From Candidatus Daviesbacteria bacterium (lineage in GTDB: Bacteria > Patescibacteriota > Microgenomatia > Daviesbacterales > UBA10151): 64,000 bases of DNA. A program made the position numbers and the translations under genes. Where the stretch lies: contig DAIDIY010000048.1 in NCBI GenBank assembly GCA_027451625.1, positions 26,917 to 90,916 on the forward strand, read 5' to 3'. The notes beneath the pieces are model-generated. The model saw only the letters and a program-made list of their open reading frames with translations. It ran no database searches and was not told the DNA's origin. This document shows, piece after piece, positions 30,998-59,439 of the stretch (position 1 is the stretch's first letter; each line of letters starts with the position of its first letter).

Positions 30998-31084
30998 GGA
31001 GAGATGCAAGAGTGGTTTAATTGGCAGTCCTGGAAAGACTGTGTGCGGGTGACCGTACCGTGGGTTCGAATCCCACTCTCTCCG
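30998..31084 (+). tRNA. tRNA-Ser (GGA), type II
   Basis: Acceptor GGAGAGA/TCTCTCC, anticodon stem-loop CAGTC-CTGGAAA-GACTG, long variable arm, T-arm GTGGG-TTCGAAT-CCCAC, discriminator G, encoded CCA. Confidence 0.8.
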
Positions 31085-31129
31085 CCAGGTATAATTGTGA
31101 ATTAATACTTAATTTATTATAATTTTTAT

Positions 31130-33855: not shown

Positions 33856-34533
33856 TCACGACTTTTGATACAGTTTAACAAACTCAAATGGTGTTTTGTA
33901 ATCTAAAGCTTGATGAGGTCTCCACGTATTGTAGCTGTTAATGAATTCTTGTATCCACTGATTAAGCTGTCCAATATGCTCAGGTCTATTCTCCAGCCAG
34001 TAGTAGAACTCATCTTGATCAGTCCTGAATGACCTTTCAATGACTGCATATTCGAAAACTGTAAAAGGTAATCCACCTAGCTCTGGAGTAACATGTTTAG
34101 TATCCATTTGTAGATAACCTAATGATTTAGTATTTCTTGGCCTCATAGCATGACCATTCTGGAATTTAGGTCTTCTGTATTGTACCTGTTTTGTTATTAA
34201 GTTTTTGTTTTTTAGCAGTCTATGGATTGTTCTCCATGAAGCAGATACACCATCTACATAAGCTAGCTCTCTTGCTGCTACATGTTTTCTACTTCTGATT
34301 TTGATCAACTTTTCAGCCTCCAAAACAGATATTTTGTAATTGATAGTTTTGGGTCTGGTAGATCTTCTCCTCAATCCTCTAGTAGTCAAATGTAATCTGT
34401 TATGAACAGATTTAGCTCTTTTGATCCATCTGTAAACAGTCGGTCTTGATATACCGAGATCTCTGGAAGTTTTAGTAATGGAATTACTCTCTTTAAATGA
34501 ATAAATAATTTCTTTAACTTCAATTCGTTTCAT
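33856..34533 (-). mobile_element. IS-family transposase (HTH plus rve/DDE integrase core; possibly truncated)
   Basis: N-terminal HTH (SRDLGISRPTVYRWIKR); C-terminal rve signature YNTWRPHQALDYKTPFEF. 225 aa is short for IS481/IS3/IS30-type enzymes. I found no clear terminal inverted repeats. Confidence 0.55.
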
Positions 34534-34709: not shown

Positions 34710-34794
34710 GGAGGGGTCGCATAGTGGTCTAGTGCGGCGGTCTTGAAAACCGCTGTGTCGTAAGGCACCGTGAGTTCGAATCTCACCCCCTCCG
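34710..34794 (+). tRNA. tRNA-Ser (UGA), type II
   Basis: Acceptor GGAGGGG/CCCCTCC, anticodon stem-loop GCGGT-CTTGAAA-ACCGC, long variable arm, T-arm GTGAG-TTCGAAT-CTCAC, discriminator G. Confidence 0.8.
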
Positions 34795-34847
34795 CCTAAA
34801 AAAGACTTTTGGTTGAAAATACTAGTTGGAGTAAATTTGTAGAATCA

Positions 34848-34935
34848 GGAGAGGTCGCATAGTTGGTCTAGTGCGGCGCAGTGCTAATGCGCTGTCCGAG
34901 AAATCGGACCGTGGGTTCGAATCCCACCCTCTCCG
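34848..34935 (+). tRNA. tRNA-Ser (GCU), type II
   Basis: Acceptor GGAGAGG/CCTCTCC, anticodon stem-loop GCGCA-GTGCTAA-TGCGC, long variable arm, T-arm GTGGG-TTCGAAT-CCCAC. Confidence 0.8.
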
Positions 34936-34958
34936 CTTTGATATTGAATTTTCTCAAT

Positions 34959-35399
34959 TTATATTTTACCTCTCAATTCTTGCTCAATTCGACGCAAATG
35001 GTCGCGATCTTTAAGTGCTTTTCTTTTATCAAATTCCCTTTTGCTTTTACCTACCCCTAACTGTAATTTAATAAAATTATTCTTATCGTAGAAAGATAAG
35101 GGAACAAGGACCATCTTACCTCCAGATATTTTACCAATAAGAGTCTTAATTTGATCTTCATGTAATAATAATTTACGACTCCTACTTGGGGTATAACCTT
35201 CAATATGAGAGTTTTTATAAAGAGGTATATTCGCATTAACTAAAAATACTTCCCCACTAATAATTCGAGCAAAACTCTGGCCTAGATCAGCTCGACCTTG
35301 TCTTAAAGATTTCACTTCTGAACCAAGTAAGACAACTCCTGTCTCTATTGATTCTAGAATATGATAATTCCTATAAGCTTCTTTGTTAACGATTCGCAT
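34959..35399 (-). CDS. smpB: SsrA-binding protein
   Basis: NKEAYRNYHILE...GVVLLGSEVKSLR and C-terminal GKSKREFDKRKALKDRD are characteristic of SmpB. Confidence 0.9.
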   Translation of the reverse strand: MRIVNKEAYRNYHILESIETGVVLLGSEVKSLRQGRADLGQSFARIISGEVFLVNANIPLYKNSHIEGYTPSRSRKLLLHEDQIKTLIGKISGGKMVLVPLSFYDKNNFIKLQLGVGKSKREFDKRKALKDRDHLRRIEQELRGKI

Positions 35400-38192: not shown

Positions 38193-40031
38193 TCATTTAA
38201 TACGAACGTCAAAAAGTCGACTTTTAATCGAAATATTACCAGGAGCCCGAAGAGCAAAAATTGTCCAAAAATCTTTACACCCTCCACCTGGATGTGAGCA
38301 GTTAACATCAAACCCGGGAAGGGTAAGATCTCCTCGATCAGTTTGAAAAGTTACATCTGCTGTATATCCTCCTCCATTTTGAGAAACACTTACACCATTC
38401 ACACTACTATATGCCCCGCCTAATGCATTTGCTCTATCCTTCATTTGTGAAATTGAATACGGTGAACCTCCACCACAATTATCTGCAGGAAGGATATGGC
38501 TTTGGTCATCGCTTGTACCTTTAGTATAAACCACCCAAGCATTTAAAATATCGGTAATGTCTTCTTGTGAAAGCCATGGATTATTACGATCACATGTAGA
38601 AAATCCGCTTCCATAGCGATAATTGCTATACCATGCTTTATAGAACCAAGGGCTGGAAGAATCGTATGCCCCTCCTGATAAACAACCGCCGTTATTACAG
38701 GTTGTATCCCAACCTTTTGTATCCAAATATCCTCCAGGAGTAGAGACATATTGAGCCGAGACTCCATCGGGCAGAATCATCCCTTTTGTTTGATCAACAG
38801 CGTCTTTCCATGCTTGAGGAGGGTTTGCACCCTTACTTGCATCATATACTTGGCAGTGATCGCTGGTACATATAGTAGATCCACTTTGAATATAGTGGTA
38901 AGCATATGTTCGCGCAGCTATTGCTTGAGCTTTAAGAGCCGCTAAATTATTATCTGTCCAGGAAGCAGGCATCTCAGCTATACCATATAAATACTGTGTC
39001 TCAAAAGGCATAGTCCCTTGATCTGTATTAATTGTAGCTGGCATACTTCGCTGTATAGGAGTAGATCCGTAATATGCCTGAAGTATTGCATTATAGTCTT
39101 GGCCTGCCTTAGCTCTTGCCCAAGCTCCATACTGACTCATTCCATTTCTGCGGAAATTAGAACCATTTCCAGCATAAGCTCCAAAAGAAAATACAGTCAC
39201 AGAGCCAGAAGGTGCATTAGATTGCCAGCCAGACAATGATGCATTTGGGTCATCAGCCAAAGCCGCACTCCCTACAGAAACATTAAAATTTCCTGATTTA
39301 GCTGCTATTAAAGATTGTTGTTGTGCTGTAAGACTCGCTATCTTTGTTTCTAAATCCTTTTGGTATGCCTTAGCTGTAGTAATTACACCTCCCAAATACT
39401 GAGCATTTTTATCTACTTGAGCTTGAAAGGAAGCAAGACTTGCTTTGTCTTTTTCCAGTTTAGCCTTTTCATTTGCTAAATTAACCATATCTAAGGTTAC
39501 ACTGCCAATGACTCTTTGATCTTCTGCTGTCGTTGCTTGACTATAAGTCATCTCTCTTATTAGATCACCTGTATTATTAGATGAAAGAAGCATTATTAGT
39601 GGGTTAACTAAAAAAGATTGAATATAATATGCTCTAACCCTAGAATCAAGGAGTACTTGCTGTGTTGCCAGTTTATCCTCACGAACTTTAATATCCTCTT
39701 CCCTTTGACCTATCTGATCTGACAGATTATTTAATCTGATCTGTATTTGATTGAGTTGAACTTTTATCGCTTCCAGTTGACCTTCTAAAGGTTTGGTTGC
39801 ATTTATAGAATTTTGCAGATTGGTATTTAGTTGGTTAATTTCTTGTCCAATCGATTGTATGCATTGATCTGATGTATCGTTACATGTTGTATCAGCCCAA
39901 ATTAAATGGATAGGTGTAAAAAAAGAAATCAAGCCGATCATTAAGGAGAAAGCAAATATGGTTACAATTCTTTTTTTATATATTTTAGAAAACAACTTAT
40001 CTAGATGCATAAAAGACAAATGAGGATGCAT
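38193..40031 (-). CDS. SpoIID/LytB-domain protein with N-terminal coiled-coil (EnvC-like architecture); probable cell-wall remodelling enzyme
   Basis: N-terminal signal/TM, a long coiled-coil (aa 60-230), then NGMSQYGAWARAKAGQDYNAILQAYYGS matching the SpoIID/LytB signature (GMSQxGAxxMAxxGxxYxxILxHYYxG). Confidence 0.5.
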   Translation of the reverse strand: MHPHLSFMHLDKLFSKIYKKRIVTIFAFSLMIGLISFFTPIHLIWADTTCNDTSDQCIQSIGQEINQLNTNLQNSINATKPLEGQLEAIKVQLNQIQIRLNNLSDQIGQREEDIKVREDKLATQQVLLDSRVRAYYIQSFLVNPLIMLLSSNNTGDLIREMTYSQATTAEDQRVIGSVTLDMVNLANEKAKLEKDKASLASFQAQVDKNAQYLGGVITTAKAYQKDLETKIASLTAQQQSLIAAKSGNFNVSVGSAALADDPNASLSGWQSNAPSGSVTVFSFGAYAGNGSNFRRNGMSQYGAWARAKAGQDYNAILQAYYGSTPIQRSMPATINTDQGTMPFETQYLYGIAEMPASWTDNNLAALKAQAIAARTYAYHYIQSGSTICTSDHCQVYDASKGANPPQAWKDAVDQTKGMILPDGVSAQYVSTPGGYLDTKGWDTTCNNGGCLSGGAYDSSSPWFYKAWYSNYRYGSGFSTCDRNNPWLSQEDITDILNAWVVYTKGTSDDQSHILPADNCGGGSPYSISQMKDRANALGGAYSSVNGVSVSQNGGGYTADVTFQTDRGDLTLPGFDVNCSHPGGGCKDFWTIFALRAPGNISIKSRLFDVRIK

Positions 40032-40097
40032 ATTAAAATTTTACCACAGTAATCACTTACTAGACACTTATATCCAGCCTGAGATATTCTATTATTA

Positions 40098-42041
40098 ATG
40101 ATTCCCATTAAAAAGTACTTAAAAGTATCTGCTATATTAATCGTTCTTATGATGTTTTTTTCGATCTTTCCCAAAAAAGTTAAAGCTGATAATAATTTTA
40201 GTTATTCTCAATACTTTGGGACTCTCAATCAAATCTCAACTTCTGGAATAAAGGTTACAATTACAAATAATGCTGGCGACTTTGCATCTGGTTCAGATAT
40301 TTCTTATGCATGGGGTTTGTCTTATAATGGATCCCCGATTGATGTAGAAAACTCTATTCCCCAGATAAGTGGTAACACAATTACTGTTGATATTTATTCA
40401 TCATATTTTCAATGGTACGGCGCTGGGAACTACCAATTTTCATTATGGGTTGGAAAGTTTGGACAACCTCCTGATTATAATTCATCAAGTGCAAGTTATA
40501 TTATTCACAATAAAACAATCGTCTTCAAACAAGTTTGTCCTTCCAATACAGGATGTAGTGATGATGCGACTTTTAGCAACAACTCTTCTCCAATAAAAGT
40601 AGTTATTGGAGAAAATACAATGCCTAAGATAACAGTCAACAACCTTTATGATTACAATAGCTATTATTTTTGGTGGATTGATGGAAATAATAATTTAGAA
40701 AATTCTGGTTATAGCCTTGTAAATCCAGGTGAACAAACCGAACAAGTAGTAGGGGTTAACGCACCCAATTCTTTGCTTTCAAATGCATATGAAAATAGTA
40801 GCAATGCAAAATCTGTGACTTTATATCTTTGTATAACAACAGATTCGACAGGCATTCCTCCAACTTCTTCTGGATGTATAAATAAACAACAATTTGAATT
40901 TGATCCTCCATCAATCTACCCCTACCCCAACCCCATACAGATAAATCAACCTGCACAAGTATTAATCAGTTTTGGGGGAGTAGGAACTAATTACACATTC
41001 GTGCCGACATCTGGGTTCGGGTATCTCCTAAACTCAAACTCTCCAACACGAGATGGATCCTTTGTGATCCCAATAGGCACATTTTCTCAACCGGGGAATC
41101 CTTCATATTGTATGATTATAAATTCTGGAGCAAATCAAATAGGCGATGATCAAAATTGTCAATTTAAAGTAACATTTAATGTTCAGGCGTCTCCAAGCAC
41201 ATCTACAAATCTTCCTTGTGGACCCACAAGTTCGGCTTCTATATCTTTATACTCAGATGGTCAACAAACATCAACTCTAGAAATAAACAAATCAGGGAGT
41301 ATTGACTGGAATAATATTTGCATTCCCTCTCCGCAAGATGTAATTAAAATCTTTAAAACAGATTCTTCTGGGAATAATTTAGGTGACCCAGTCTTTTATA
41401 CCTATGTTGATTGTAAAAATGTGACAACAGGGCAACAAGACGATCCAAACATAGGTGATAGTCCCCTACCTTCAGGAAATTGTTCAGTAGGACCTTTTAC
41501 AGACACAGGAAACTATAAAGCTTATTATGTGTCTATTTTCTATCAAAACAACCCTCTAGCTTCTTTTCCATTCGTAGTTACCTTACCTAATACGCCTACA
41601 GTAACTACATCTCCTCAGTCTTTAACATCAGCTCCTCCTGCTCCAGTTGTTTCTAATTCTACCGGACAATTATGTAATGTAAAAACAGGTAAGTATTATA
41701 ATGGCTCACCAAGTAACCCAACTCCTCTGACTTTAGACGATATACCAAATCCAGCAGATAGAGGAGTTTATACTGCAGTAGGATGTGTTCCAACAGATCC
41801 AGCTATTTTTATAAATAACCTATTAAGAGTAGCAATTGGAGCGGGAGGTGGAATAGCACTTCTACTTATGGTAAGAGGTGTGTTTGAGATTATGGGTTCA
41901 GCTGGCAATCAAGAAGCAGTACATAAAGGTCGAGATCAACTTATTTCAGCGGGTATTGGACTCCTATTTATAATTTTTGCAGTCCTCCTTCTCAAATTCA
42001 TCGGAATTAATATATTGCAAATTCCGGGATTTTCTTCTTAA
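40098..42041 (+). CDS. large secreted Ser/Thr/Asn-rich protein ending in a VirB2/TrbC-like pilin module (pilin-fusion adhesin candidate)
   Basis: Signal peptide MIPIKKYLKVSAILIVLMMFFSIFPKKVKA. About 560 aa of low-complexity extracellular sequence. C-terminal 75 aa (LRVAIGAGGGIALLLMVRGVFEIMGSAGNQEAVHKGRDQLISAGIGLLFIIFAVLLL) has the same helix/GxxxE charged loop/helix pattern as the next four genes. Confidence 0.55.
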   Translation: MIPIKKYLKVSAILIVLMMFFSIFPKKVKADNNFSYSQYFGTLNQISTSGIKVTITNNAGDFASGSDISYAWGLSYNGSPIDVENSIPQISGNTITVDIYSSYFQWYGAGNYQFSLWVGKFGQPPDYNSSSASYIIHNKTIVFKQVCPSNTGCSDDATFSNNSSPIKVVIGENTMPKITVNNLYDYNSYYFWWIDGNNNLENSGYSLVNPGEQTEQVVGVNAPNSLLSNAYENSSNAKSVTLYLCITTDSTGIPPTSSGCINKQQFEFDPPSIYPYPNPIQINQPAQVLISFGGVGTNYTFVPTSGFGYLLNSNSPTRDGSFVIPIGTFSQPGNPSYCMIINSGANQIGDDQNCQFKVTFNVQASPSTSTNLPCGPTSSASISLYSDGQQTSTLEINKSGSIDWNNICIPSPQDVIKIFKTDSSGNNLGDPVFYTYVDCKNVTTGQQDDPNIGDSPLPSGNCSVGPFTDTGNYKAYYVSIFYQNNPLASFPFVVTLPNTPTVTTSPQSLTSAPPAPVVSNSTGQLCNVKTGKYYNGSPSNPTPLTLDDIPNPADRGVYTAVGCVPTDPAIFINNLLRVAIGAGGGIALLLMVRGVFEIMGSAGNQEAVHKGRDQLISAGIGLLFIIFAVLLLKFIGINILQIPGFSS

Positions 42042-42102
42042 TAAAATACTAATTTCTCTTTACTGTCTTGCCTAGAAAAATTTAAAAGATTAGTATGTTC
42101 TT

Positions 42103-42786
42103 ATGTTATCATTTTTGAGTAATACAGCTTACGCTCAGACATTAAAAATTCCTGGACTAGATCAAATTAAAGGTCCCCTAACTAATACAAATCGACCTTT
42201 TGATACTCCGGGAGGAGTTATCACAACAGGTTTAGATATTTTTTTTACAGTCATGACTTTTATTGCCTTTTTATGGATGATCTGGGGAGCTATTGCATAC
42301 ATATTTGCTGCTGGGGAGAAGGAAGCATTATCTAAAGCTAAAAATCGAATATTCGCTGCTTTAATAGGATTGTTTATAATTGCTTTATCTTATACAGCCA
42401 CCCAATTAATTTTTCAAATACTACAGCCTAATGTTCCTAATCCACTATCTCTTAGCATTATTCAACCTGTTTATGCACAAGCATCAACAGGTTATGGTTC
42501 AGATTTGAGTAAAACATATGCTTTTGGTAATTTCTTAGATTTTGGTAGCATTACTGCATTAATTATGCCTTTTATTTTCTCTATAGCTACTACTGGAGTA
42601 GTTATATACTTTCTAATTGGAGCTTTTAGATTTGTTATCTCAGCTGGTAATAAAGAATCAATAAGTAAAGCACAGTCAATGATTACCCATGCAGTAATTG
42701 GATTCTTTATTTTGATATTTATTTTTCTGATATTTCAATTTATTCCGCAATTTTTCGGTTTTAAGTTTAGTGTATTTGGCCAGTAG
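42103..42786 (+). CDS. VirB2/TrbC-like pilin-fold protein, internal tandem duplication (two modules)
   Basis: Module 1 FFTVMTFIAFLWMIWGAIAYIFAAGEKEALSKAKNRIFAALIGLFIIALSY. Module 2 FIFSIATTGVVIYFLIGAFRFVISAGNKESISKAQSMITHAVIGFFILIFIFLIF. Confidence 0.55.
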   Translation: MLSFLSNTAYAQTLKIPGLDQIKGPLTNTNRPFDTPGGVITTGLDIFFTVMTFIAFLWMIWGAIAYIFAAGEKEALSKAKNRIFAALIGLFIIALSYTATQLIFQILQPNVPNPLSLSIIQPVYAQASTGYGSDLSKTYAFGNFLDFGSITALIMPFIFSIATTGVVIYFLIGAFRFVISAGNKESISKAQSMITHAVIGFFILIFIFLIFQFIPQFFGFKFSVFGQ

Positions 42787-42834
42787 TTAACTTAAATATT
42801 TTATAAACAAAAATGTTAAGATTTAAAATCTAAA

Positions 42835-43371
42835 ATGACAAAAAAACTTTTAGTTTTATCTGTTTTTATAGTAGTCTTTTTTTTGGCTATTCCAAACAAC
42901 GTTTATGCTTGCAGTGGGCCTGGAGATTGTCCTGCTGGTGAATATTGCAACACTAGTAACCCTCCGGGAGAATGCCAGTCTGTCTTAGGACATATTAGTC
43001 CTCCCCAAGCTATTTCGAATATAGGTTACGGGTCTCAGGGTATTGGACACTTCTTAAGCCAGCTTATTCAACTTTTATATGTTGCTGCAGCAATTGTCTT
43101 TGTTTTTATGATCCTTTGGAGTGCATTTCAATGGATAATGTCAGCAGGAGATAAAGAAAAGCTAAACGCAGTAAGGAGCAGAATGATACATGCTATTATC
43201 GGTATAGCTCTTCTTGCAGCCGCTTTTGTAATAATTAGATTTTTCGGACAGGTTACAGGGTTTCATTTCTTCCAAGGACAAGAAAATCCAGACTTCTCTC
43301 TTCCTACACCTACTCCTTGTTTAATGTTTGTTCCAGGAGCAGGTCAATTGACTCCTCAGCCTTGTTCCTAA
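42835..43371 (+). CDS. VirB2/TrbC-like pilin-fold protein with Cys-rich N-terminal segment
   Basis: Signal peptide; CSGPGDCPAGEYCNTSNPPGEC; then LLYVAAAIVFVFMILWSAFQWIMSAGDKEKLNAVRSRMIHAIIGIALLAAAFVII. Confidence 0.55.
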   Translation: MTKKLLVLSVFIVVFFLAIPNNVYACSGPGDCPAGEYCNTSNPPGECQSVLGHISPPQAISNIGYGSQGIGHFLSQLIQLLYVAAAIVFVFMILWSAFQWIMSAGDKEKLNAVRSRMIHAIIGIALLAAAFVIIRFFGQVTGFHFFQGQENPDFSLPTPTPCLMFVPGAGQLTPQPCS

Positions 43372-43450
43372 ATTAAGTTTATATGCCTAATCTTTAGGTT
43401 CACTAGGACGAACTATTGACAAGGTACGTTAATCAATCTAAGATTAAATC

Positions 43451-43804
43451 ATGACTCCTACACCTACAGAATCACCAGCAACCACCATAGCAATTCAACC
43501 CCCAAGTGGTGTTGGAATAAGTCCTACTTATTCTATTAGCAGTTTATTCCACAATATCATAGGTTTATTTTTCGTAGTAGGTGCAATACTTGTAATATAC
43601 AATTTAATCATGGGTGCTTTTGATTGGATATTATCAGGTGGAGATAAGGAAAAAATAAGTGCTGCGAGAAATAAAATTATAAATGCTTTAATTGGTTTTG
43701 CCATACTTGCCGTTGCTTTTGTAATACTCAACTTTACTGGAAAATTAATTAATATTGATATTTCAAATCTTAATGTACCTAAATTAGGAAATCCTCCCTC
43801 TTAA
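43451..43804 (+). CDS. VirB2/TrbC-like pilin-fold protein
   Basis: IIGLFFVVGAILVIYNLIMGAFDWILSGGDKEKISAARNKIINALIGFAILAVAFVIL. Confidence 0.55.
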   Translation: MTPTPTESPATTIAIQPPSGVGISPTYSISSLFHNIIGLFFVVGAILVIYNLIMGAFDWILSGGDKEKISAARNKIINALIGFAILAVAFVILNFTGKLINIDISNLNVPKLGNPPS

Positions 43805-43870
43805 ATTTCTTCAACGATATAAACTAAGTTAGTTGTCAAAAATAAATATCTAATTTATTATTATTGTGAT

Positions 43871-44179
43871 ATGCAAGCCGCAGCAGGAATCGAGGATTTA
43901 CAAGCTTTAATTCAAAGAATTCTAGGATTAGTAGTAATTGGAGCATTCTTAGTTCTCTTATTCCTCTTCCTTTCAGCTGGATTCAAATATTTAACTTCAG
44001 GAGGAGAACCCAAAGGAGTTCAGTCAGCCCATAACACATATACATGGGCATTAATAGGTATCGCCCTTTTACTAATCGTATTTGTAGCCTTACGGTTAAT
44101 TTCTTCCTTTACCGGAGTAGATGTTACCAAGTTTTGTTTAGGTTTCCCTGGCTTGGAGAGTACTACTTCATGCTTTTAA
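43871..44179 (+). CDS. VirB2/TrbC-like pilin-fold protein
   Basis: LVVIGAFLVLLFLFLSAGFKYLTSGGEPKGVQSAHNTYTWALIGIALLLIVFVAL. Confidence 0.5.
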   Translation: MQAAAGIEDLQALIQRILGLVVIGAFLVLLFLFLSAGFKYLTSGGEPKGVQSAHNTYTWALIGIALLLIVFVALRLISSFTGVDVTKFCLGFPGLESTTSCF

Positions 44180-44970
44180 AATTAATTTCATCTGTAGTAA
44201 TAATAATTTTTATTTTTATTCCCCTTACAGTCTTTGCAGATCAAGCAAGCTCTCCATATAGTTCTCCTGGACCGACACAAGAATCACTTCCAAGCCCGAC
44301 TCTTCCCCCCGTCGATGCTTCAAAATTAGATAACGATTTTGTACTTACCAAAGTAGTTAACAAAGCTACTCTCCCTAATCTAGCAGATAGCATCACTCCA
44401 TCTTTATTTCCTTCTCCTGCTACTCAAATAGGTCTTGAAGAAAATAGTAGCTTCTTATCTTGGATAAACCAGTTTGCCTGTAGTATAGGAACTTTTATAG
44501 ATCAAATTATAGGAGGAACATTCTGCCGAGATCAATTAATCCTAGCCGCAAACAAAGGAGATCAATTTGCATCCAATGCAAGTATTGAAGCTCAATCTCA
44601 AAGGCCGTTTGATATAACGATTACTCCGATCTGGAAAAATCCTGGTCTAAAAGATTCTCCCAACCAAACAACTGGAGATAAAGATCTAACTAATATCAAT
44701 AATTCACAGGGAACATCCGTGGGTATTTATTCGCTAAACATGCCTCAACTAAAAGGAATTGATTGCCCAACTCCTCCATCCCCAGATACAAACTCACTTA
44801 ACAACGATAGTCAATATTATGCTTCTAATGGAGCTCTAACAGTTGGTGGTAATATAATTTCAGACTGTAGACTACCTGACACAAATGCTAGACGGAACGA
44901 GTACAATCAAGCAAACTTTCCTCCAGGGGTTGATCCAACTAATAAATTCATAACTCCTACACCTCCTTAG
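44170..44970 (+). CDS. secreted hypothetical protein (signal peptide)
   Basis: Start moved to the internal ATG at 44170 (MLLKLISSVVIIIFIFIPLTVFADQ...). The track ORF from 44044 would overlap the preceding pilin gene by 136 nt in another frame. Confidence 0.45.
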   Translation: MLLKLISSVVIIIFIFIPLTVFADQASSPYSSPGPTQESLPSPTLPPVDASKLDNDFVLTKVVNKATLPNLADSITPSLFPSPATQIGLEENSSFLSWINQFACSIGTFIDQIIGGTFCRDQLILAANKGDQFASNASIEAQSQRPFDITITPIWKNPGLKDSPNQTTGDKDLTNINNSQGTSVGIYSLNMPQLKGIDCPTPPSPDTNSLNNDSQYYASNGALTVGGNIISDCRLPDTNARRNEYNQANFPPGVDPTNKFITPTPP

Positions 44971-45058
44971 ATTTTGATTTAAACTCTTAGATACTTAACT
45001 CATCAAAAAATATGATTTTCCTTCTACACAAAAAATACAAATTATGTACAATTAAATT

Positions 45059-46792
45059 ATGCTTTCTGCCCGAGTATTAATTCTTTTATTCCTAACATTT
45101 ATATATTTAGTATTTACCAAAAATATTTATGCTGTCTCTCCTATCCCAACTCCGACAGATGATATAGCTCCAGGATCTATAATATTTAATAATTTTTCTC
45201 AAGATGCTTCAAAATATACGGTTCCTCCAACCCCAACACCGAATAGTACTTCAAGTTCTACCAACTCTGTTCCTGCTACATCTCAAAATTGGGGAGCAGC
45301 GCAACAAGCTCCTTTTACTCTAGACAATATGATGGGCGGAACTATTTGTTTCTTAGGAGGATTTGATCCATACGGCGCATGTCCAGTACAAAATGGTCCT
45401 TTAGTAAATGGACGAATTCAAGTTATGCTTTATAATCAAATTCCTGGAGATGGTGCTATTGGAGCTGCCAATAACTTAATGATCTCTTTATATAATCATC
45501 CTCCGACCTCAACCTCTTATTATTTAGCAAACTTGGGTAATTCAATCGGCATTACGAATACAGCTTATGCTGCATCTGGACCTGATCAAGGTTCTGGTTC
45601 GAGCCTAATTGTTCCTGTTTATAAAATATGGACATTCACCAGAAATATGGCTTACGTATTGATTATTTTTATAATTATAGCTGTTGGATTTATGATTATG
45701 TTCAGAAGCAAGATAAACCCGCAAACTACAATATCTATACAGTCAGCGATACCACGAATAGTAATAAGCTTGGCACTTATCACTTTCAGCTATTTCATTG
45801 CATCTTTATTAATTGACATATCTTTTTTTGGTGTTCAAATAATAGCTCAACTTTTTCTTCAAGCTCAGAATCAAGCAGGCGCTAATAATGCTTTTGATGT
45901 GAATAGTGTAGCTAACAATTCTAACATATTTCAATTATTGTCGATCGCTCAATCTCAGAGCTGGAATGTGGGTGAGATTATGACAGCTATCTGGAATGTA
46001 ACTTTAAATGCAGCCGGAAATAATTTTGCACAGATCGGTCATACAGGGAACATCGCTGGAGCAATAGGTTCAATTGTCACTGGATTAATTTTAGGAGTCG
46101 GAGGGTTAATAGGAGGAACTTTGGGAGGAATACTTATACCTCTTATACTTATGATAGTATTTTTTATTCAGACATTCAGACTTTTATGGAGCCTCCTTAA
46201 TGCATACATTACTATTCTTATATACACAGTGATTGGCCCGTTCCTAATTCTATATTCTGCTATTCCTGGGAAAGGAGGAGTTTTGACAAACTGGTGGAAA
46301 ACCATTTTAGGAAATTCGCTAATTTTTCCAGCTGTTATAGCCGTATTTTTATTTTCCGGTGTCATTCTAGGAACGCCTTCTACTGATTGGAATGGTGCTC
46401 GTCCTCCACTTTTGAATTTTGACAGCGGAGAGATATTAAGACTGGTAATCTCATACGGACTTCTTATCGGTCTACCTGCTATTCCCGGGATGGTCAAAGA
46501 ATTACTAGGTATTAAAGATATTCAAGGTATCCCTGGAGCAGCTATGGCTGGAGCTATGGCTGGGGTTGGAGTAGTTCAAGCGGGAGTCAATCTAACACAA
46601 ATTCCAGCTACTATTCAACAACGAAGACTTGCATGGAGTAGATACAACGCTGGAGTCGATAACGCTCCCGCTCCAAGAACTAGAACTGGTGCGACAGGTA
46701 GATATGCATTTATAAGGAATCTTCCATCCAACATTGTTGACTTGTTCGGTGGACAAGGTAATGGAACTGGTGGTGGCGGTGCGTCACACTAA
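45059..46792 (+). CDS. VirB6/TrbL-like polytopic membrane protein (candidate T4SS channel component)
   Basis: Signal peptide, ~150-aa extracellular segment, then at least six TM helices (aa 190-470), then a Gly-rich tail. Size and topology resemble VirB6/TrbL. No sequence motif, so assignment is by architecture and context. Confidence 0.4.
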   Translation: MLSARVLILLFLTFIYLVFTKNIYAVSPIPTPTDDIAPGSIIFNNFSQDASKYTVPPTPTPNSTSSSTNSVPATSQNWGAAQQAPFTLDNMMGGTICFLGGFDPYGACPVQNGPLVNGRIQVMLYNQIPGDGAIGAANNLMISLYNHPPTSTSYYLANLGNSIGITNTAYAASGPDQGSGSSLIVPVYKIWTFTRNMAYVLIIFIIIAVGFMIMFRSKINPQTTISIQSAIPRIVISLALITFSYFIASLLIDISFFGVQIIAQLFLQAQNQAGANNAFDVNSVANNSNIFQLLSIAQSQSWNVGEIMTAIWNVTLNAAGNNFAQIGHTGNIAGAIGSIVTGLILGVGGLIGGTLGGILIPLILMIVFFIQTFRLLWSLLNAYITILIYTVIGPFLILYSAIPGKGGVLTNWWKTILGNSLIFPAVIAVFLFSGVILGTPSTDWNGARPPLLNFDSGEILRLVISYGLLIGLPAIPGMVKELLGIKDIQGIPGAAMAGAMAGVGVVQAGVNLTQIPATIQQRRLAWSRYNAGVDNAPAPRTRTGATGRYAFIRNLPSNIVDLFGGQGNGTGGGGASH

Positions 46793-46797
46793 ATAAA

Positions 46798-49110
46798 CTA
46801 ATGATGTCTCGCAGCAGGGGCGCTACCCATTGATGACCTAATCATAGCCCATATAAGTTCGAATAAGACGCCTCTTAAATTTAACCTTGTTGCAAGAATA
46901 TCTAGAGCGATCAATGATTCAAATCCTTTATTCTCAATGACTTTATCCCAGGCATTTCTAATTTCAGTTTCATCAAGTCTCATCTGTCGCCCTCTTTGAG
47001 CAACCATTAAATCCAGAGAAGACATCGAAGGTCTGGCGATATGCATGACGTGCTGACCCTCGTGAGTCTGCTCAAATCCTGCTAAATTAACCAGCATGTT
47101 CCGTATATTGCTAAACTGACCTGCACCTTGGTTAAAAAACAATCCCCCAAATTTAACCATTCCTTCTTCGCTGGGATTTGCTAAATAACCTTCACCTGAC
47201 TCTGCTTGTGACCTTATCTGATCAGGAATCAGAACCCGAGGAGCTAGTTTAAAAGAAGGTCCTTCAATAAGCTTAAAATCAAAAAGTCTAATTCTACCAT
47301 CATCAGATTTAAATGCCGAATTTATTGATGAATCCTCTATTACTTCTTCAATAAAGCTTTTCCTTTCTTTCAGATCATCTGGAGATATATTTAAAGAATT
47401 AAGATCTTCTATACGAAAAATTGTATTTTGTAAAGATAAAGATATACCTGAAGGCCATTTATAATCACCCCCATCCATTCTTCCTTTCACACCAAATATA
47501 GCATAGGTATAATTGGCTGCCATCTCAGCAGGATTCTTTTTACCAGCAACTGCAAACCTTTTTGATAAACTTTTATATAAGTCTTCAGGCAAAAGACTAA
47601 AAAAATCTCTATTATTAAAATCTACACCTTTTACTAATTCATAATACATTCTATATTTTGAATGTCCAGCACGATATCCTAATCTTGCTTTAATATTTAA
47701 ATTTCTAGCAGTATAAGAACCAGTGCCTTCCATCTCTACTCCGTACCAATCTAAGCTTCTTCCTGTATTTAAAAATTTAATCATTTCCTCTTCAGCTTTT
47801 GGATCATTGGGATCAAAAATGCGAGTAACTCCCTTTTCATCCACTCCAACCAATTTTTCATGATAATATTTTCTAAAATCCATCTCCCATTTTCTCTCAG
47901 CTATTCTCATAGCTGACTCTAAAGCAGCTTTCATATAAAATGCATGTCTGCTTTTCTCTTTATCAGATAGGTCTTTATCCGGTCTCCCTTTCTCCCAATT
48001 AGCAAAAACCTCATTTTCTATCTCTTCTCTCATCTTCTCCTTTGCACTGTTATCTTTTTTAATAAAATCTCCAGCATGCCTTTCTAAAGCTTGATAGAAA
48101 TGGAACACTAGAAGAGGTGAATTATTAGTAAGGTCATAATTTTTTTTATTACCTTCCGAATCTTTATAGCTGAACTTATATGCATCAGGAGCATCGACCA
48201 TTAAAAAATTAAGCTGATCATTATATTGTGAACCTATCGCACCGACTATTCCTTGTGTGTCTTTAGCTTGATAAAACTGAACGTACGCTTGATGAAAATG
48301 AAGTCTCCTATAAAATTCTCTATACATTGCATCACCTAAATGCTTCAACCGATAGCGGCGTTCATCATACTCATCATCACTTTCTTCGTTTTGTATAGGT
48401 TCTCCATCAGGACCGGATCTTTCACCAGGCTTAAATTTAGGAACAACCTCTGTTGTTCCTGATCCAATAGATACAGTTTTTTCACCTAGACCGGGAAGTC
48501 TTATCTTTTCTTCTACTTTAAGACTTTGCATAAGAGGTAAAACCAAAATAAATTCATTCAATCTCCTCCTATTAGATTGATCTCCTTCGGGAGCTAGACT
48601 CGACTCAATTTTATTCAATAACTCTCTCATCTCCGCAATTTTTGCCTCATCATCTCTTGGAAGATAGATATCTCGCGGGTAACCCACTTCAGACACAATA
48701 GTAAATCTTTCCCATTCTCCCTCTCTCATCTCCTCTGCAGATTTTGTCGCTTCGGAAGAAATTGACCTCGTAAAAGATTGTGCTAAAGCGGAAGCCTGTT
48801 GTTGTCTTCTAAAAGCTTCTGTCAATCGTAACTGTATCTCACTTTGTGCTTGCTGTTGTATCTGTTGGCGTAAAGCTATATCTGCTTGCATTTGTTGCTC
48901 TGCAGTCATCTCACTCATTCGATTCCGATATTCAGGAGTAGAAGTATGTTGTTGATATAATTGATCCACTCTACTATTTAAACTCCCGAATGCATCAATA
49001 TTTTCAAAAGTTTCAGACTCCTCTCTCCCCACATTCTCTTGAGGATTAGTATGCTCTGCGGGGTTAGGTGGATTCGATTCAGGATTATCCATTGGTCGTT
49101 CTAAAGACAT
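46798..49110 (-). CDS. hypothetical large soluble protein (770 aa)
   Basis: Acidic, no TM, N-terminal coiled-coil or Gln-rich region. No recognisable catalytic motif. Sits on the opposite strand inside the T4SS-like locus. Confidence 0.4.
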   Translation of the reverse strand: MSLERPMDNPESNPPNPAEHTNPQENVGREESETFENIDAFGSLNSRVDQLYQQHTSTPEYRNRMSEMTAEQQMQADIALRQQIQQQAQSEIQLRLTEAFRRQQQASALAQSFTRSISSEATKSAEEMREGEWERFTIVSEVGYPRDIYLPRDDEAKIAEMRELLNKIESSLAPEGDQSNRRRLNEFILVLPLMQSLKVEEKIRLPGLGEKTVSIGSGTTEVVPKFKPGERSGPDGEPIQNEESDDEYDERRYRLKHLGDAMYREFYRRLHFHQAYVQFYQAKDTQGIVGAIGSQYNDQLNFLMVDAPDAYKFSYKDSEGNKKNYDLTNNSPLLVFHFYQALERHAGDFIKKDNSAKEKMREEIENEVFANWEKGRPDKDLSDKEKSRHAFYMKAALESAMRIAERKWEMDFRKYYHEKLVGVDEKGVTRIFDPNDPKAEEEMIKFLNTGRSLDWYGVEMEGTGSYTARNLNIKARLGYRAGHSKYRMYYELVKGVDFNNRDFFSLLPEDLYKSLSKRFAVAGKKNPAEMAANYTYAIFGVKGRMDGGDYKWPSGISLSLQNTIFRIEDLNSLNISPDDLKERKSFIEEVIEDSSINSAFKSDDGRIRLFDFKLIEGPSFKLAPRVLIPDQIRSQAESGEGYLANPSEEGMVKFGGLFFNQGAGQFSNIRNMLVNLAGFEQTHEGQHVMHIARPSMSSLDLMVAQRGRQMRLDETEIRNAWDKVIENKGFESLIALDILATRLNLRGVLFELIWAMIRSSMGSAPAARHH

Positions 49111-50988: not shown

Positions 50989-52146
50989 ATGGATGCACAT
51001 CCTGTCCCACAAAATGTGACTTCTTTTGAGTTCCACCTGGTTGGAGATATGACTCTAAAGCAATTTGGATATCTTGCAACGGGGTTAATTATTGCCTATA
51101 TCACATTCTTATTTTTTTTTAATAACCTTCCGTATGTAGCAACTCCAATTATTGCTATCTCTGCTGGATTAGGAGCAGCTTTTGCCTTTTTGCCCATCTA
51201 TAATCGTCCTTTAGATCACTGGGTAAACGTCTTCTTTCATGCTATATTCTCTCCTACCCAGAGAGCATGGAGAACCCCAACAGACAAACCAATACCAAAT
51301 GACCTAAGAGCTGAATTAATTAAAAACCGCCTTCATCTTTTTATGCAAAGCACTGCCATACCCCAATCCTCCTATGGAACACCATTTCCTTCTAACTCTG
51401 CATCTATTAATTTAAGACGTCTACCTATAAATACCCACCCAAACTTAAATTTTCCTTCACACCCTAACTCTTCTAATAAACCTGAACCATCTCAAAATCA
51501 AACCTTAAAACCGACTAAAACAGGCTCGACAACCTCTAAGATGCCTACCCCTGAGGAACTAAACCACTTAGTAGAAATGGCCCGACAGACCCAAATGCTT
51601 CAGAGTAAAACTCTCGAATTGGAAAAAGAGCTCTCCCAACTTAAGTCTTTGCTTGCATTACAATCTACAAAAGGATCTTCTCCTGTTCAGCTGTCACAAA
51701 CAGGATCAGTAGTTCAGCAAGCTGGATCACAATTAAATCAATTGCAAAAACAGGCCATACAAGTTGCACAGCAAAAAGTTCAACCTCCAATCCCTAACCC
51801 AACTCCTCCTGCTAAACCCCCTAAAGTCGTGATAATAGAGCCTCCAAAACAAACAAAAACAGTAATTGCCTTAACATCGCTACCCAATATTATTAACGGT
51901 ATTATTACAGATACAGTCGGAAATTATCTCGAAAATGTAATTGTCATAATTCATAATCAGGATAACCTACCAGTCAGGGCTTTAAAAACCAATAAACTTG
52001 GCCAGTTCACAGGAGCCACGCCGTTACCTTCTGGTGTTTACACTATTACAATGGAAAAGGAAGGATTTGATTTTGACACATTACAAATAACTCTAAACAA
52101 CCAGATTGTTCCACCAATTAAAGTTACGGCAAAAAAAGGAGGTTAA
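50989..52146 (+). CDS. VirB10/TrbI-like architecture: TM anchor, Pro-rich linker, coiled-coil, C-terminal beta domain
   Basis: Two TM helices (aa 35-75); Pro-rich aa 100-290; coiled-coil (LEKELSQLKSLLALQ); C-terminal domain GIITDTVGNYLENVIVIIHN...GVYTITMEKEGF resembling a carboxypeptidase-regulatory or Cna-B-like beta-sandwich. Directly precedes VirB4. Confidence 0.35.
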   Translation: MDAHPVPQNVTSFEFHLVGDMTLKQFGYLATGLIIAYITFLFFFNNLPYVATPIIAISAGLGAAFAFLPIYNRPLDHWVNVFFHAIFSPTQRAWRTPTDKPIPNDLRAELIKNRLHLFMQSTAIPQSSYGTPFPSNSASINLRRLPINTHPNLNFPSHPNSSNKPEPSQNQTLKPTKTGSTTSKMPTPEELNHLVEMARQTQMLQSKTLELEKELSQLKSLLALQSTKGSSPVQLSQTGSVVQQAGSQLNQLQKQAIQVAQQKVQPPIPNPTPPAKPPKVVIIEPPKQTKTVIALTSLPNIINGIITDTVGNYLENVIVIIHNQDNLPVRALKTNKLGQFTGATPLPSGVYTITMEKEGFDFDTLQITLNNQIVPPIKVTAKKGG

Positions 52147-53136
52147 ATGTTCTCTACTCAACAAGCTATATTAATCGAGGACATTAAAGATGATCTAATA
52201 TTTTTAAAAGATGGCGGCGCATCCTTAATTCTCAATACTACTGCTGTTAATTTCGGTTTACTTTTTGAGACAGAGCAAATGGCTATTATCGATGCTTTCG
52301 CTCAACTGTTAAACTCTCTTTCATTCCCAATACAAATTGTTATTCGCTCAAAAAAAATGGATATCTCTTCATACCTTAGCACACTTGAGAGAGCTTTAAA
52401 GTCACAAACTAACCAACTCCTCGCTCAACTAACTCTAGATTACCGGAATTTTGTTGAAGGATTAATTAAGGAAAACGATGTACTCGATAAACAATTCTAT
52501 GTTTGCCTTTATGTTTCAGCAATCGAAATGGGAATTTTACCTAAACAACAAACTGATAGGAGTAGAAAAGCTAAAGCAATGCTAGAAACAAGAAGAGATT
52601 TAATATTAAGGCAACTGAACAGAATTGGGCTCAAAGCGAGACAGCTTGCAACAGCTGAGTTAATTAATCTCTTTTATGATATCTATAACCCAGATAATTG
52701 GTACTTCTCCACTGATGACGAAAGTGTAGTCGATCCTGAAGCAGAAAGAAAAGAAAACGAATTACAAACGTCAACTCCCAACATACCTTCACAACTCAAA
52801 CGAATTGTTCCTCAAACACCTATTGTTCAACACACACTTCAAAGTAACCTCCAATTAAGACCGATACCTCAACTCGTTCAACATCAATCACATCTAGAAC
52901 CTAGATCTCCACTACAACAAAATTCTACCCCTCTTTCTCAAAACAACCCACAAGCTACAAATATATTTCAAAAACCTCAAATTCCATTTCAAATACCAGT
53001 TAATGGGCCTACAGTAAATCCTTTACCTCCAATAAAACAAAATCCACCAAATAGCCAACAGCCATCGCAGAACAATTCGATAAATAGGGCCTCTCCGTTT
53101 ATAGTTGAAGAACTAAAAGATGACTTTGGATCCTAA
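52147..53136 (+). CDS. VirB4/TrbE/CagE N-terminal domain protein (first part of a split VirB4) with Gln/Pro-rich tail
   Basis: N-terminus AILIEDIKDDLIFLKDGGASLILNTTAVNFGLLFETEQMAIIDAFAQLLNSLSFPIQIVIRS matches the VirB4/CagE_TrbE_VirB N-domain. Residues ~230-329 are Q/P-rich. Overlaps the next ORF by 17 nt in another frame. Confidence 0.6.
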   Translation: MFSTQQAILIEDIKDDLIFLKDGGASLILNTTAVNFGLLFETEQMAIIDAFAQLLNSLSFPIQIVIRSKKMDISSYLSTLERALKSQTNQLLAQLTLDYRNFVEGLIKENDVLDKQFYVCLYVSAIEMGILPKQQTDRSRKAKAMLETRRDLILRQLNRIGLKARQLATAELINLFYDIYNPDNWYFSTDDESVVDPEAERKENELQTSTPNIPSQLKRIVPQTPIVQHTLQSNLQLRPIPQLVQHQSHLEPRSPLQQNSTPLSQNNPQATNIFQKPQIPFQIPVNGPTVNPLPPIKQNPPNSQQPSQNNSINRASPFIVEELKDDFGS

Positions 53137-57866: not shown

Positions 57867-58967
57867 TTAGCTTAAGTTAATCGGCATAATAATATATTCA
57901 AGACTTGAGTCCTGCAAAGGCCTAACCAAAACAGCAGACAAGGAGCCAGAAAGCTGCATCTCTACTTCCGAATCAGGGAATGCGCCTAAGACATCCATCA
58001 AAAATTTTGCATTAAAAGCAATCTGAATCTCTTCTCCTAATACTTTGGCTGAAATTTCTTTTTTTTGGCCACCCAATTCTTTAGTCTCAGAGGTTAAGGT
58101 AATACCTTGGTTTCCCACAAAAAACTTTATAACATTAGCCTCTCCTCGAGCAAAAACAGAAGCCAACTTGACAGCCTTTAGAAGCTCATTTCTATCAAAA
58201 TTTACTGTTGTTTTTTTGTCAGTAGGTATAATTTTCTCCCAGGAAGGAAATTGTCCTTCAATCAAGCGTGATGAAAGTTTGGTATTACCAAAGCTAAAAA
58301 TTATTTGATTCTGATTATCAGAGGTTGAGATATTAACTTGCAGAGGTTTCTCTTCCGAAATTAATCTCAAGATTTCTTCTAAAGTTCTTCTTGGCACAAG
58401 AGCCTTAAAAGAGGAATCTTCATCAATCTCTACAACCTTGTGTGCTAATCTATACCCGTCAGTGGCCACAAACTGAAGTTTTTTATCTTTTATTTCAGTC
58501 AACACCCCAGTCAGAACTGGCCTTCCTTCATCCAAAGCCGAAGCAAAACTAACCTGAGGCAGACATGAATGGAGTGTATCTGCTTTCACTAGCGCAGTCT
58601 CTTTACCGCTTAAAGGAATCGCAGGAAACTCAGACGAGTCAATTCCATTAATAGTTGAAGAGAATGTTGGAGTTTTTATTTCCATTAAATTTGAATTAGC
58701 TGTAAATTCTATCTTTTCTCCTTGTAAATTAGAAACTAAATCCACAAGAGTACGTGCTGGCACACTAACAGCTCCTTCCTCGATAACTTCAGTCTTTATT
58801 GTTCTTACAACACCTACCTCTAAGTTTGTCGCTGAAACTTTCAGAGAGCCACTCTCTGCCTCTATAAGTATATTTCCCAGCACAGGAAGTTGAGCTTTCA
58901 TCCCCACAGATCTTGATGCTGAGTTTAATATGGGCATTATGTCTTGTTGAAGAATCGAAAATTTCAT
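57867..58967 (-). CDS. dnaN: DNA polymerase III beta sliding clamp
   Basis: N-terminus MKFSILQQDIMPILNSASRSVG...QLPVLGNILIEA and three-domain length (366 aa); downstream of dnaA. Confidence 0.9.
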   Translation of the reverse strand: MKFSILQQDIMPILNSASRSVGMKAQLPVLGNILIEAESGSLKVSATNLEVGVVRTIKTEVIEEGAVSVPARTLVDLVSNLQGEKIEFTANSNLMEIKTPTFSSTINGIDSSEFPAIPLSGKETALVKADTLHSCLPQVSFASALDEGRPVLTGVLTEIKDKKLQFVATDGYRLAHKVVEIDEDSSFKALVPRRTLEEILRLISEEKPLQVNISTSDNQNQIIFSFGNTKLSSRLIEGQFPSWEKIIPTDKKTTVNFDRNELLKAVKLASVFARGEANVIKFFVGNQGITLTSETKELGGQKKEISAKVLGEEIQIAFNAKFLMDVLGAFPDSEVEMQLSGSLSAVLVRPLQDSSLEYIIMPINLS

Positions 58968-58975
58968 TTTTTAAA

Positions 58976-59431: not shown

Positions 59432-59439
59432 TGATTTGA

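Follow-up and report, generated by a model that had tools for sequence, protein, structure and literature searches.

FUS is an open reading frame (ORF) of 647 amino acids (aa) at positions 40098–42041 (+) of a 64-kb stretch of DNA from a Candidatus Daviesbacteria genome (contig DAIDIY010000048.1; the whole stretch, 64,000 nucleotides (nt) long, is termed the window). It encodes a pilin family protein with a large N-terminal ectodomain and heads a pilin array that belongs to a type IV secretion system (T4SS) locus. In related genomes its C-terminal pilin module (the tail) is conserved and its N-terminal region (the head) is replaced between close relatives. On balance, FUS is probably a VirB2-like pilin that shows a fast-evolving host- or surface-contact domain on a T4SS pilus or channel.

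The pilin module and the ectodomain of FUS

FUS is a single ATG-to-stop open reading frame with no interruption. The hydropathy profile of the 647-aa protein displays exactly three hydrophobic segments, at aa positions ~6–30, 574–598 and 612–640. The first lies in a Sec-type signal peptide (aa 1–30, nt 40098–40187 (+), MIPIKKYLKVSAILIVLMMFFSIFPKKVKA|D), which was assigned by hydropathy and has a putative cleavage site at VKA|D. It contains no Cys and no lipobox, and FUS is therefore not a lipoprotein. An equivalent site, ...VKA|Q, is kept in the orthologue of the closest metagenomic relative (locus L083). With an intact reading frame, this hydropathy profile and the VKA|D site, the proposal of an earlier note on this DNA that the protein is secreted is supported.

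The signal peptide is followed by an orphan ectodomain (aa 31–492, nt 40188–41573 (+)), which is rich in Ser, Asn, Thr, Pro and Gly and has 10 Cys in five close-spaced pairs. A Pro/Thr/Ser-rich linker or stalk comes next (aa 493–552, nt 41574–41753 (+)); it has a low-entropy run at positions 493–504 and includes Cys526. The conserved pilin module occupies aa 553–647 (nt 41754–42038 (+)). Its elements are, in order, the motif G-x-x-T-A-[IL]-G-C-[IV]-P-T-[DE]-P, helix 1 (568–599), a polar and basic loop (GSAGNQEAVHKGR), helix 2 (605–639) and the tail end ...ILQIPGF. An AlphaFold model of the 647-aa protein, made with a 54-sequence alignment, gives predicted local distance difference test (pLDDT) values of 88–94 for aa ~520–647 and displays a small beta-hairpin, the two helices and the short loop between them. 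The C-terminus of FUS shows no LPXTG-type sorting signal.

A Pfam search with full-length FUS yielded one domain only, PF18895 (T4SS_pilin), at aa positions 571–635 with 23.2 bits; the gathering cut-off of this family is 26.6 bits. The module scanned alone (aa 553–647) scores 27.5 bits, above the cut-off, and the family consensus scores 37.3 bits. PF18895 is matched by 53 of 54 family members at E-value ≤1e-3. There was no NCBIfam match for the 647-aa protein, and a PHROGs search with six proteins of the locus yielded no match. Two features of PF18895 proteins are found in FUS, i.e. two hydrophobic helices joined by a short polar/basic loop (AlphaFold, hydropathy), and a position in a T4SS cluster with VirB3/PrgI, VirB4, a VirB6-like gene and an array of paralogues. 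A third is absent: the family consists of small single-domain proteins (~100–190 aa) and FUS has 647 aa.

A hidden Markov model (HMM) built from the five downstream modules only gives the FUS C-terminus 35.0 bits, and the best of 2000 shuffles of the same C-terminal residues reaches 9.9 bits. No other ORF of the window matched this model, although several encode membrane proteins. Thus the similarity is far above that of random transmembrane (TM) hairpins. In the reciprocal search, the FUS family HMM matches all five downstream modules with E-values of 1e-9 to 1e-12. Two further proposals of the earlier note hold: FUS ends in the same module as the downstream pilin-like genes, and a pilin module (PF18895) is fused to a large exported domain. 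The fusion is encoded in a T4SS locus that also has PrgI/VirB3 and VirB4.

The bias in the ectodomain composition, also predicted earlier, is real: aa positions 31–560 contain 13% S, 10.8% N, 8.5% T, 8.5% P and 8.1% G, together 49%. The description of this region as low-complexity did not survive, as SEG-like low-entropy windows cover 26 residues, or 4% of the protein, and no tandem or internal repeats of note were found in FUS. The entropy of 40-aa windows in the N-terminal region is 3.2–3.8 bits. The 12 Cys of the region are arranged as six consecutive pairs of close spacing, and 11.7% of its residues are aromatic. The Cys pairs and the aromatic content suggest folded, disulphide-bonded domains.

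AlphaFold gives aa 34–512 a pLDDT below 50, because there are no homologues to align, and the model thus gives no backing to the earlier note's view of the region as beta-rich. Word-indexed searches of 5.8 billion proteins, with the full protein and with aa 31–552 alone, yielded no ectodomain homologue, only the protein itself. The ectodomain (522 aa) has no BLAST match in any of 80 orthologous loci, and jackhmmer found no match to it among 236 other family N-termini. No Pfam domain is present in the heads of the 54 family members scanned, FUS included. Some HMMER alignments reached back to aa ~350–400; this extension was not reproduced and is treated as compositional.

When 1.84 billion cluster representatives were scanned exhaustively with HMMER, 6451 relatives were found at E-value ≤1e-3 and 4029 at ≤1e-10. 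The best 150 matches all cover the last ~95 residues only, with 50–62% identity. Among the 149 best non-self relatives, 115 are at least 300 aa long (median 394) with the module at the extreme C-terminus, and 113 have a signal-peptide-like N-terminus. The tail motif reads G-[IV]-x-T-A-[IL]-G-C-[IV]-P-T-[DE]-P … GGG-[IV]-A-LLLM … SAGNPE-x-[VL]-KKG-x-EQ … IGLLFIIF … IGV-[DN]-IL-x-[IL]-PGF. It is found 85–87 residues from the C-terminus in 97 of 112 motif-bearing matches. An alignment of 92 tail residues displays 12 invariant and 20 nearly invariant positions, with 54–65% identity.

A second, nearly invariant Cys sits 10–37 residues upstream of the tail motif, and an even number of Cys residues is present in 218/237 family members. 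Both observations suggest that a disulphide loop directly precedes helix 1 on the extracellular side. In FUS, C526 and C563 are nearly invariant columns of the family alignment, and Cys526 of the linker probably pairs with Cys563.

More than 100 independent proteins share the FUS architecture, and the fusion is neither rare nor an artefact. A missed stop codon or an assembly error, raised in the earlier note as what could undo the fusion, is thus contradicted both by these proteins and by the L083 contig. The same note had held that such fusions are not commonly described. This is right for the literature searched and wrong if read as rarity, in view of the 6451 relatives and the length of the best of them. 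What is already known is the existence of pilin arrays and the database name "pilin" for such proteins; NCBI gives this label to some long members, e.g. P0152 (381 aa) and P0173 (385 aa). The literature that was searched has no description of a VirB2-like pilin with a large ectodomain, of its fixed first position, or of head-swapping.

Conserved tails and replaced heads in related loci

One genome per GTDB species was scanned (353 relatives), and the best 80 loci were kept. Almost all are from Ca. Daviesbacteria or other Microgenomatia; titles reading "uncultured Gammaproteobacteria" among the relatives appear to be submitter mislabels. The loci were recovered by means of the conserved tail itself, and the presence of at least one such ORF per locus is true by construction. 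Recovery through the tail does not account for there being exactly one such ORF, for the bimodal scores or for the synteny.

When applied to every ORF of the loci, the tail HMM gives bimodal scores: 81 ORFs score at least 90 bits (median length 385 aa), with a single such ORF in 79 of the 82 loci, and 349 short pilin ORFs score 20–50 bits (median length 126 aa). Gene order is almost invariant. The genes orf607, (orf93), bPH and the SpoIID-like gene point in one direction; FUS, about five short pilin genes, the VirB6-like gene and, further along, PrgI and VirB4 follow on the other side of the divergent junction. In 59 loci the SpoIID-like gene adjoins FUS, at a median distance of 83 bp, and the VirB6-like gene comes after the pilin array in 51 related loci. 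The FUS orthogroup occurs once per locus, as the first gene of the array, in most of the recovered Microgenomatia loci. The check for the fusion in related genomes that had been advised thus found it there, at a conserved position.

Median identity to the window over the 80 loci is 51% for the FUS tail, 40% for the SpoIID-like protein, 32% for the VirB6-like protein, 40–43% for the short pilins and 59% for the C-terminal part of VirB4. The heads were followed in closer pairs. In L083, SpoIID is 86% identical to that of the window and the head is 58% identical over aa 4–302. The number of nonsynonymous substitutions per site (dN) between the two is 0.30 for the head and 0.089 for SpoIID; only dN is usable, as the synonymous distance (dS) is saturated (proportion of synonymous differences, pS, 0.69–0.74). 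The GTDB representatives recovered do not include the genome of the window; the nearest of them is a Ca. Daviesbacteria metagenome-assembled genome (L072) with a SpoIID-like protein of 67% identity. Its FUS orthologue has 436 aa, of which the last 137 alone align to FUS. Among 68 loci, pairs whose SpoIID proteins are 70–90% identical have tails that are 68–76% identical, and ~87% of these pairs are without detectable head similarity.

One pair shows the limits of the change in the DNA. Loci L106 and L124 have SpoIID proteins that are 96% identical and tails that are 98% identical, and their heads are unrelated save for 22 residues by the module. The flanking DNA is 84–90% identical around an unalignable block of 555–639 bp (positions 9512–10066 of L106 and 4231–4869 of L124). 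Within this block lie the head and signal peptide of the lead pilin, the DNA between the two divergent genes and ~40 codons at the start of the SpoIID-like gene. The change of the head is a replacement, not gradual drift. A conserved tail joined to an orphan head that differs by replacement between close relatives is in keeping with a part that recognises a host or a surface.

A target of a diversity-generating retroelement (DGR) or a silent-cassette system was considered for this variation and rejected within the 64-kb window. No direct or inverted repeats of at least 30 nt touching 40098–42041 were found anywhere in the 64-kb window. In addition, the variation is whole-domain replacement and not the A-specific mutation of a short region that a DGR target would show.

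Each of the short pilins keeps its place in the array. For a comparison by ordinal position, 36 canonical loci with exactly five downstream pilins were used. The best match of the 178-aa pilin of the window is at ordinal 3 in 36/36 loci and that of the 102-aa pilin at ordinal 5 in 36/36; the 117-aa pilin matches best at ordinal 4 in 25 loci and at ordinal 3 in 11. The 227-aa double pilin finds its best matches at ordinals 1 or 2, and is thus a tandem fusion of array positions 1 and 2. A double pilin gene is also present in L012 (249 aa) and L038 (223 aa). The linker of the double pilin retains a degenerate signal-peptide-like stretch, LSLSIIQPVYAQA. The fusion gives a "Rosetta-stone" hint that paralogues 1 and 2 may be adjacent, at 1:1, in the assembled structure.

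Positional orthology of the short pilins means that there are six distinct VirB2-like orthogroups, the 647-aa protein being the first. In the literature, the pilin paralogues of Patescibacteria are read as variants for antigenic or host versatility (PMC12102498). Since the short pilins are positional orthologues (~40% identity), this reading is argued against. Six fixed positional orthologues, one pair of which is sometimes fused in tandem, suggest a defined hetero-oligomer instead.

The orthologues of FUS range in size from a bare pilin (L078, 125 aa; L076, 138 aa) up to 647 aa. Thus the head is an accretion onto a canonical pilin. Long proteins occur outside the lead position as well: 14 of 345 non-lead pilin-like ORFs (4%) are at least 250 aa long, and 10 of these 14 have the module no more than 4 residues from the C-terminus. 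This indicates that accretion of an ectodomain onto the hairpin took place more than once. At positions 685–3538 of L001 (ENA contig k141_2637752) there are two consecutive long proteins with a pilin module of the non-lead type, P0002 (546 aa) and an ORF of 394–401 aa.

The type IV secretion locus in the window

The locus headed by FUS is a monoderm-type T4SS of an ultrasmall bacterium (Patescibacteria), and the DNA has a GC content of ~35%. Upstream of FUS and divergent from it, positions 38193–40031 (−) encode a lytic enzyme that is SpoIID-like (PF08486, 59.9 bits) and has a coiled coil of the PcsB type. It is a candidate for the cell-wall hydrolase of the system, i.e. a VirB1 analogue. VirB1 has been reported as missing from most Patescibacteria genomes with a T4SS.

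Downstream of FUS, four genes, all with PF18895, provide five pilin modules. The tandem double pilin (227 aa, 42103–42786 (+)) has two PF18895 modules, seen as two Pfam stretches and as HMM domains at aa 39–107 and 155–214. It is followed by the paralogue at array position 3, a 178-aa protein with a Cys-rich N-terminus (42835–43371 (+), PF18895 35.7 bits), by that at position 4 (117 aa, 43451–43804 (+), 30.7 bits) and by that at position 5 (102 aa, 43871–44179 (+), 26.1 bits). A 308-aa ORF at 44044–44970 (+) overlaps the last pilin gene at the 3′ end of that gene. The true start codon of the ORF is probably an internal Met, which opens the signal peptide MLLKLISSVVIIIFIFIPLTVFA|DQ; read from there, it would encode a secreted Pro/Ser/Thr-rich protein between the pilin array and the VirB6-like gene.

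The VirB6-like candidate (45059–46792 (+)) is a polytopic membrane protein of 577 aa with a signal peptide and ~7 TM segments. It was assigned by position and topology, and it has no Pfam or NCBIfam match. Two unannotatable genes on the minus strand come next and are followed by the core T4SS genes (50989–54850 (+); PF12666, PF11130, PF19044, PF12846), namely a PrgI/VirB3-like gene (385 aa) and VirB4 as two ORFs. The PrgI/VirB3-like protein (50989–52146 (+)) displays two N-terminal TM helices, a proline-rich stretch and a CarboxypepD_reg-like beta-sandwich at aa 302–371, and is a second T4SS membrane component with an added extracellular domain. VirB4 is split into 52147–53136 (329 aa, TraC_F_IV-like) and 53120–54850 (576 aa, P-loop) with an overlap of 17 nt. 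It is split identically in L008, L018, L048, L064 and L067; the split therefore looks conserved and not like a frameshift error. No VirB5 homologue was found by Pfam and NCBIfam among the locus proteins scanned. A scan of 39900–47000 for promoters and terminators gave counts that match the shuffled expectation, and these are thus uninformative on stoichiometry.

The genes dnaN and dnaA lie at 57867–61022 (−), ~1 kb past the last gene of the T4SS region, i.e. the locus adjoins the replication origin region. This agrees with the position near dnaA reported for some Patescibacteria T4SS (PMC12102498). A 780-aa P-loop ATPase with weak HerA/DUF87 and TrwB_AAD_bind matches is encoded at 15610–17952 (−), 22 kb from the T4SS locus, and is possibly a coupling-protein-like ATPase. 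A few kb upstream of the T4SS-linked block, between SmpB (34959–35399) and primase/sigma-70 genes, there are tRNA-like repeats (31042–31085, 34752–34795 and 34893–34936) and a fragment of an integrase-core/helix-turn-helix transposase (33856–34533).

Interpretation and relation to known systems

The structures of the F and T pili show that the N-terminus of a VirB2-type pilin points to the outside of the filament. The subunits come from a pool in the membrane, are extracted at the VirB4/VirB6 platform and join the filament at its base. An ectodomain at the N-terminus of such a pilin would thus be displayed outside. The course that we infer for FUS, from cleavage through topology, disulphide formation and filament incorporation to host contact, would be as follows. 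The Sec signal peptide would be cut after Ala30, and a disulphide-bonded ectodomain of ~520 aa would remain outside the membrane with its Pro/Thr/Ser stalk. The C-terminal hairpin would insert with both ends out (N-out/C-out) and the basic loop (…HKGR) in the cytoplasm, as in classical VirB2 pilins. A VirB4/VirB3/VirB6-like machine would then take the hairpin from the membrane pool together with the five short paralogues, and hairpins and paralogues would form a pilus-like or stub-like conduit. The ectodomain displayed outside would act as a fast-evolving contact element that gives specificity for a host or surface, and the conserved tail would maintain compatibility with the machine. If filaments grow from the base, a nucleating subunit ends up at the tip, and "initiator" and "tip adhesin" are then one model. 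Tip, major-subunit and membrane-anchored roles are inseparable by computation.

Several points weigh against a contact pilin. Rapid turnover of the head is by itself no proof of host binding, since relaxed constraint or evasion of phages or predators could explain it. The bare-pilin orthologues show that the head is dispensable in some lineages. No adhesin, lectin or Ig domain is recognisable in FUS or in the heads of 53 relatives, and the fold of the FUS ectodomain could not be predicted by AlphaFold (pLDDT <50). A pilus made by a Patescibacteria T4SS is so far hypothetical (PMC12857230), and the role of the T4SS has been called "completely unknown" (PMC11665869). The only solved filaments that are specific to CPR (candidate phyla radiation) bacteria are the Pam pili, which are unrelated (bioRxiv 10.64898/2026.03.03.709456). 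Pam pili were also considered as the explanation of an Ig-like or beta-rich head and rejected, as they are a separate, T4SS-independent system (bioRxiv 10.64898/2026.03.03.709456).

The link between PF18895 and VirB2 is a further weak place. The FUS module has no match to PF04956 (TrbC/VirB2) at E-value ≤10, a PDB profile search gave no match to solved pilins, and fold searches with the module yielded generic helical hairpins only, which are non-specific. The program hhalign, run against an alignment of VirB2 proteins of the MPF-T type from annotated plasmid genes, gave probabilities of 1.2% and 0.3%. A tblastn search of plasmids gave no significant match. The sole stretch aligned by hhalign is PTDPAIFINNLLRVAIGAGG (window 41784–41830) with aa positions 54–72 of Agrobacterium tumefaciens VirB2 (GTDPATMVNNICTFILGPFG). 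The stretch ("TDPAxxINN"), with which helix 1 begins, occupies an equivalent position in both proteins; the match is not significant (E-value 0.044, probability 1.2%). Some Saccharibacteria PF18895 pilins do also match PF04956 (Wang 2023 Table S2, PMC10633639). With no sequence link found for FUS, the tie between PF18895 and VirB2 rests on context, on topology and on these published matches.

The same data can be read in other ways. FUS could be the major structural pilin, with the hairpin as a core, a variable coat on each subunit as in flagellin and the short paralogues as minor or initiator pilins; its variability would then be driven by phage, predator or antigenic pressure on the coat and not by receptor binding. 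Genes of major pilins usually come first in their clusters (fimA, papA, virB2, traA), as FUS does. Among the six, FUS has the tail with the highest conservation (51% vs ~40–43% for the short paralogues). Head length ranges between 0 and ~550 aa, in the manner of the outer domains of flagellin, and the outward N-terminus of VirB2-type pilins would suit a coat. A 50-kDa domain on every subunit is, however, sterically demanding on a five-start helix of the VirB2 type (~700 A2 per subunit, by our own estimate for the F pilus), and the tandem fusion of positions 1 and 2 with strict positional orthology suggests a defined hetero-oligomer. A major-pilin role is thus considered unlikely.

It is likewise improbable that FUS is not polymerised at all and that the hairpin is a two-helix membrane anchor or docking element beside the VirB6-like channel, with stalk and ectodomain as a fixed part of the envelope, belonging to the secretion machine or to the cell surface, that spans or remodels the wall or S-layer. 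T4SS of monoderms are not known to make pili (PMC12102498; PMC12857230), and the Pam pili provide no related precedent. A Pro/Thr/Ser stalk is typical of wall-spanning linkers, a SpoIID-like wall hydrolase is paired divergently with FUS in 59 loci, and the 4% of other pilin-like ORFs with long N-termini suggest a general C-terminal anchor for surface proteins. An anchor would have no need, however, of 12 invariant and 20 nearly invariant positions in 92 residues, including the extracellular Cys loop and the IPGF tail, nor of an invariable first position among six arrayed paralogues. A structural part of the wall is also not expected to be replaced between 96%-identical genomes. Finally, an artefact, i.e. 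a mis-assembled or read-through fusion or a chance hydrophobic hairpin, is highly improbable. The full-length PF18895 score is slightly under the cut-off (23.2 vs 26.6 bits), and the ectodomain has no homologues outside one close relative; but the frame is continuous, the isolated module passes the cut-off, and its 35 bits stand against at most 9.9 for shuffles. In addition, 115 of the 149 best relatives, from independent assemblies, combine a length of at least 300 aa with a C-terminal module, synteny is conserved, and the independent metagenome contig L083 has the same N-terminus (58%) beside a gene that is 86% identical.

With the contact-pilin reading, FUS becomes a definite candidate for the part of the Patescibacteria T4SS, an essential secretion system, that contacts the host or sets host specificity. 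The candidate is testable by comparing head types with co-occurring hosts, by binding assays with heads, and by the use of heads as labels in cryo-electron tomography. FUS would also widen the known range of VirB2-type pilins, as the others are small proteins of a single domain. A wider proposal is offered as a tentative possibility: the pilin hairpin may have been made into a display scaffold, in a hetero-oligomeric T4SS pilus or conduit of Microgenomatia, built from six fixed paralogues, whose lead subunit carries a cassette-like host-recognition head in place of adhesins of the VirB5 or PrgB type. If so, the head would be a host-range determinant of uncultivated epibionts, and head type would predict the host attached.

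FUS shares a signal peptide, two hydrophobic helices and a short basic loop with the classical pilins VirB2, TrbC and TraA (T-pilus, RP4, F), which are likewise encoded beside VirB3, VirB4 and VirB6. The N-out topology of these pilins would place an N-terminal fusion on the outside of a pilus. Unlike FUS, they have 70–120 aa and no ectodomain, and they belong to diderms. The tip minor pilin VirB5/TraC has the role proposed here, that of an exposed, T4SS-associated contact element which could nucleate assembly; its fold and family are unrelated to FUS, and a tip location for FUS is conjectural. No homology to VirB5/TraC or to the Gram-positive T4SS adhesin PrgB was found in FUS, PF18895 being the only match.

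The chaperone-usher adhesins FimH and PapG, and flagellin, follow the same design logic of a conserved polymerisation domain with a variable exposed domain. They have other folds (Ig-like donor strand; coiled-coil D0/D1) and other assembly machines, and there is no homology to FUS. The Mbov_0395 family of Mycoplasma integrative and conjugative elements (NF045849) comprises small pilin-like conjugal transfer proteins with two helices, from a monoderm T4SS. Downstream paralogues of the window score 33.6, 23.3 and 18.6 bits against it, all below the cut-off of 40 bits, and the 647-aa protein has no match.

A close comparison is with the pilin arrays of Patescibacteria. The T4SS of this group is of the MPF-FATA-like type, often near dnaA and usually without a relaxase, and has arrays of 2–11 VirB2-like pilins (PMC12102498). 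A 2025 survey counts such proteins as VirB2 homologues with "no adhesins detected" and does not mention the fusion (PMC12102498). Southlakia epibionticum has six small PF18895 pilins in an essential T4SS cluster, SEML1_0006–0019 (PMC10633639), and the pilin array is reported to be essential for epibiotic growth (PMC10633639; PMC12857230). These arrays (SEML1_0014–0019; 2–11 genes in 383 assemblies) share the tail family with FUS and, as in the window, belong to an MPF-FATA-like locus that lies near dnaA and includes PrgI/VirB3, VirB4 and a VirB6-like candidate. Both S. epibionticum and the window have six divergent pilin paralogues. The pilins of Saccharibacteria are, however, small (~120–185 aa), whereas the first paralogue of the window and of most Microgenomatia orthologous loci carries a hypervariable ectodomain of 100–550 aa. 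Where the literature treats the paralogues as variants of one another, each is here a positional orthologue, and variability is concentrated in a single head.

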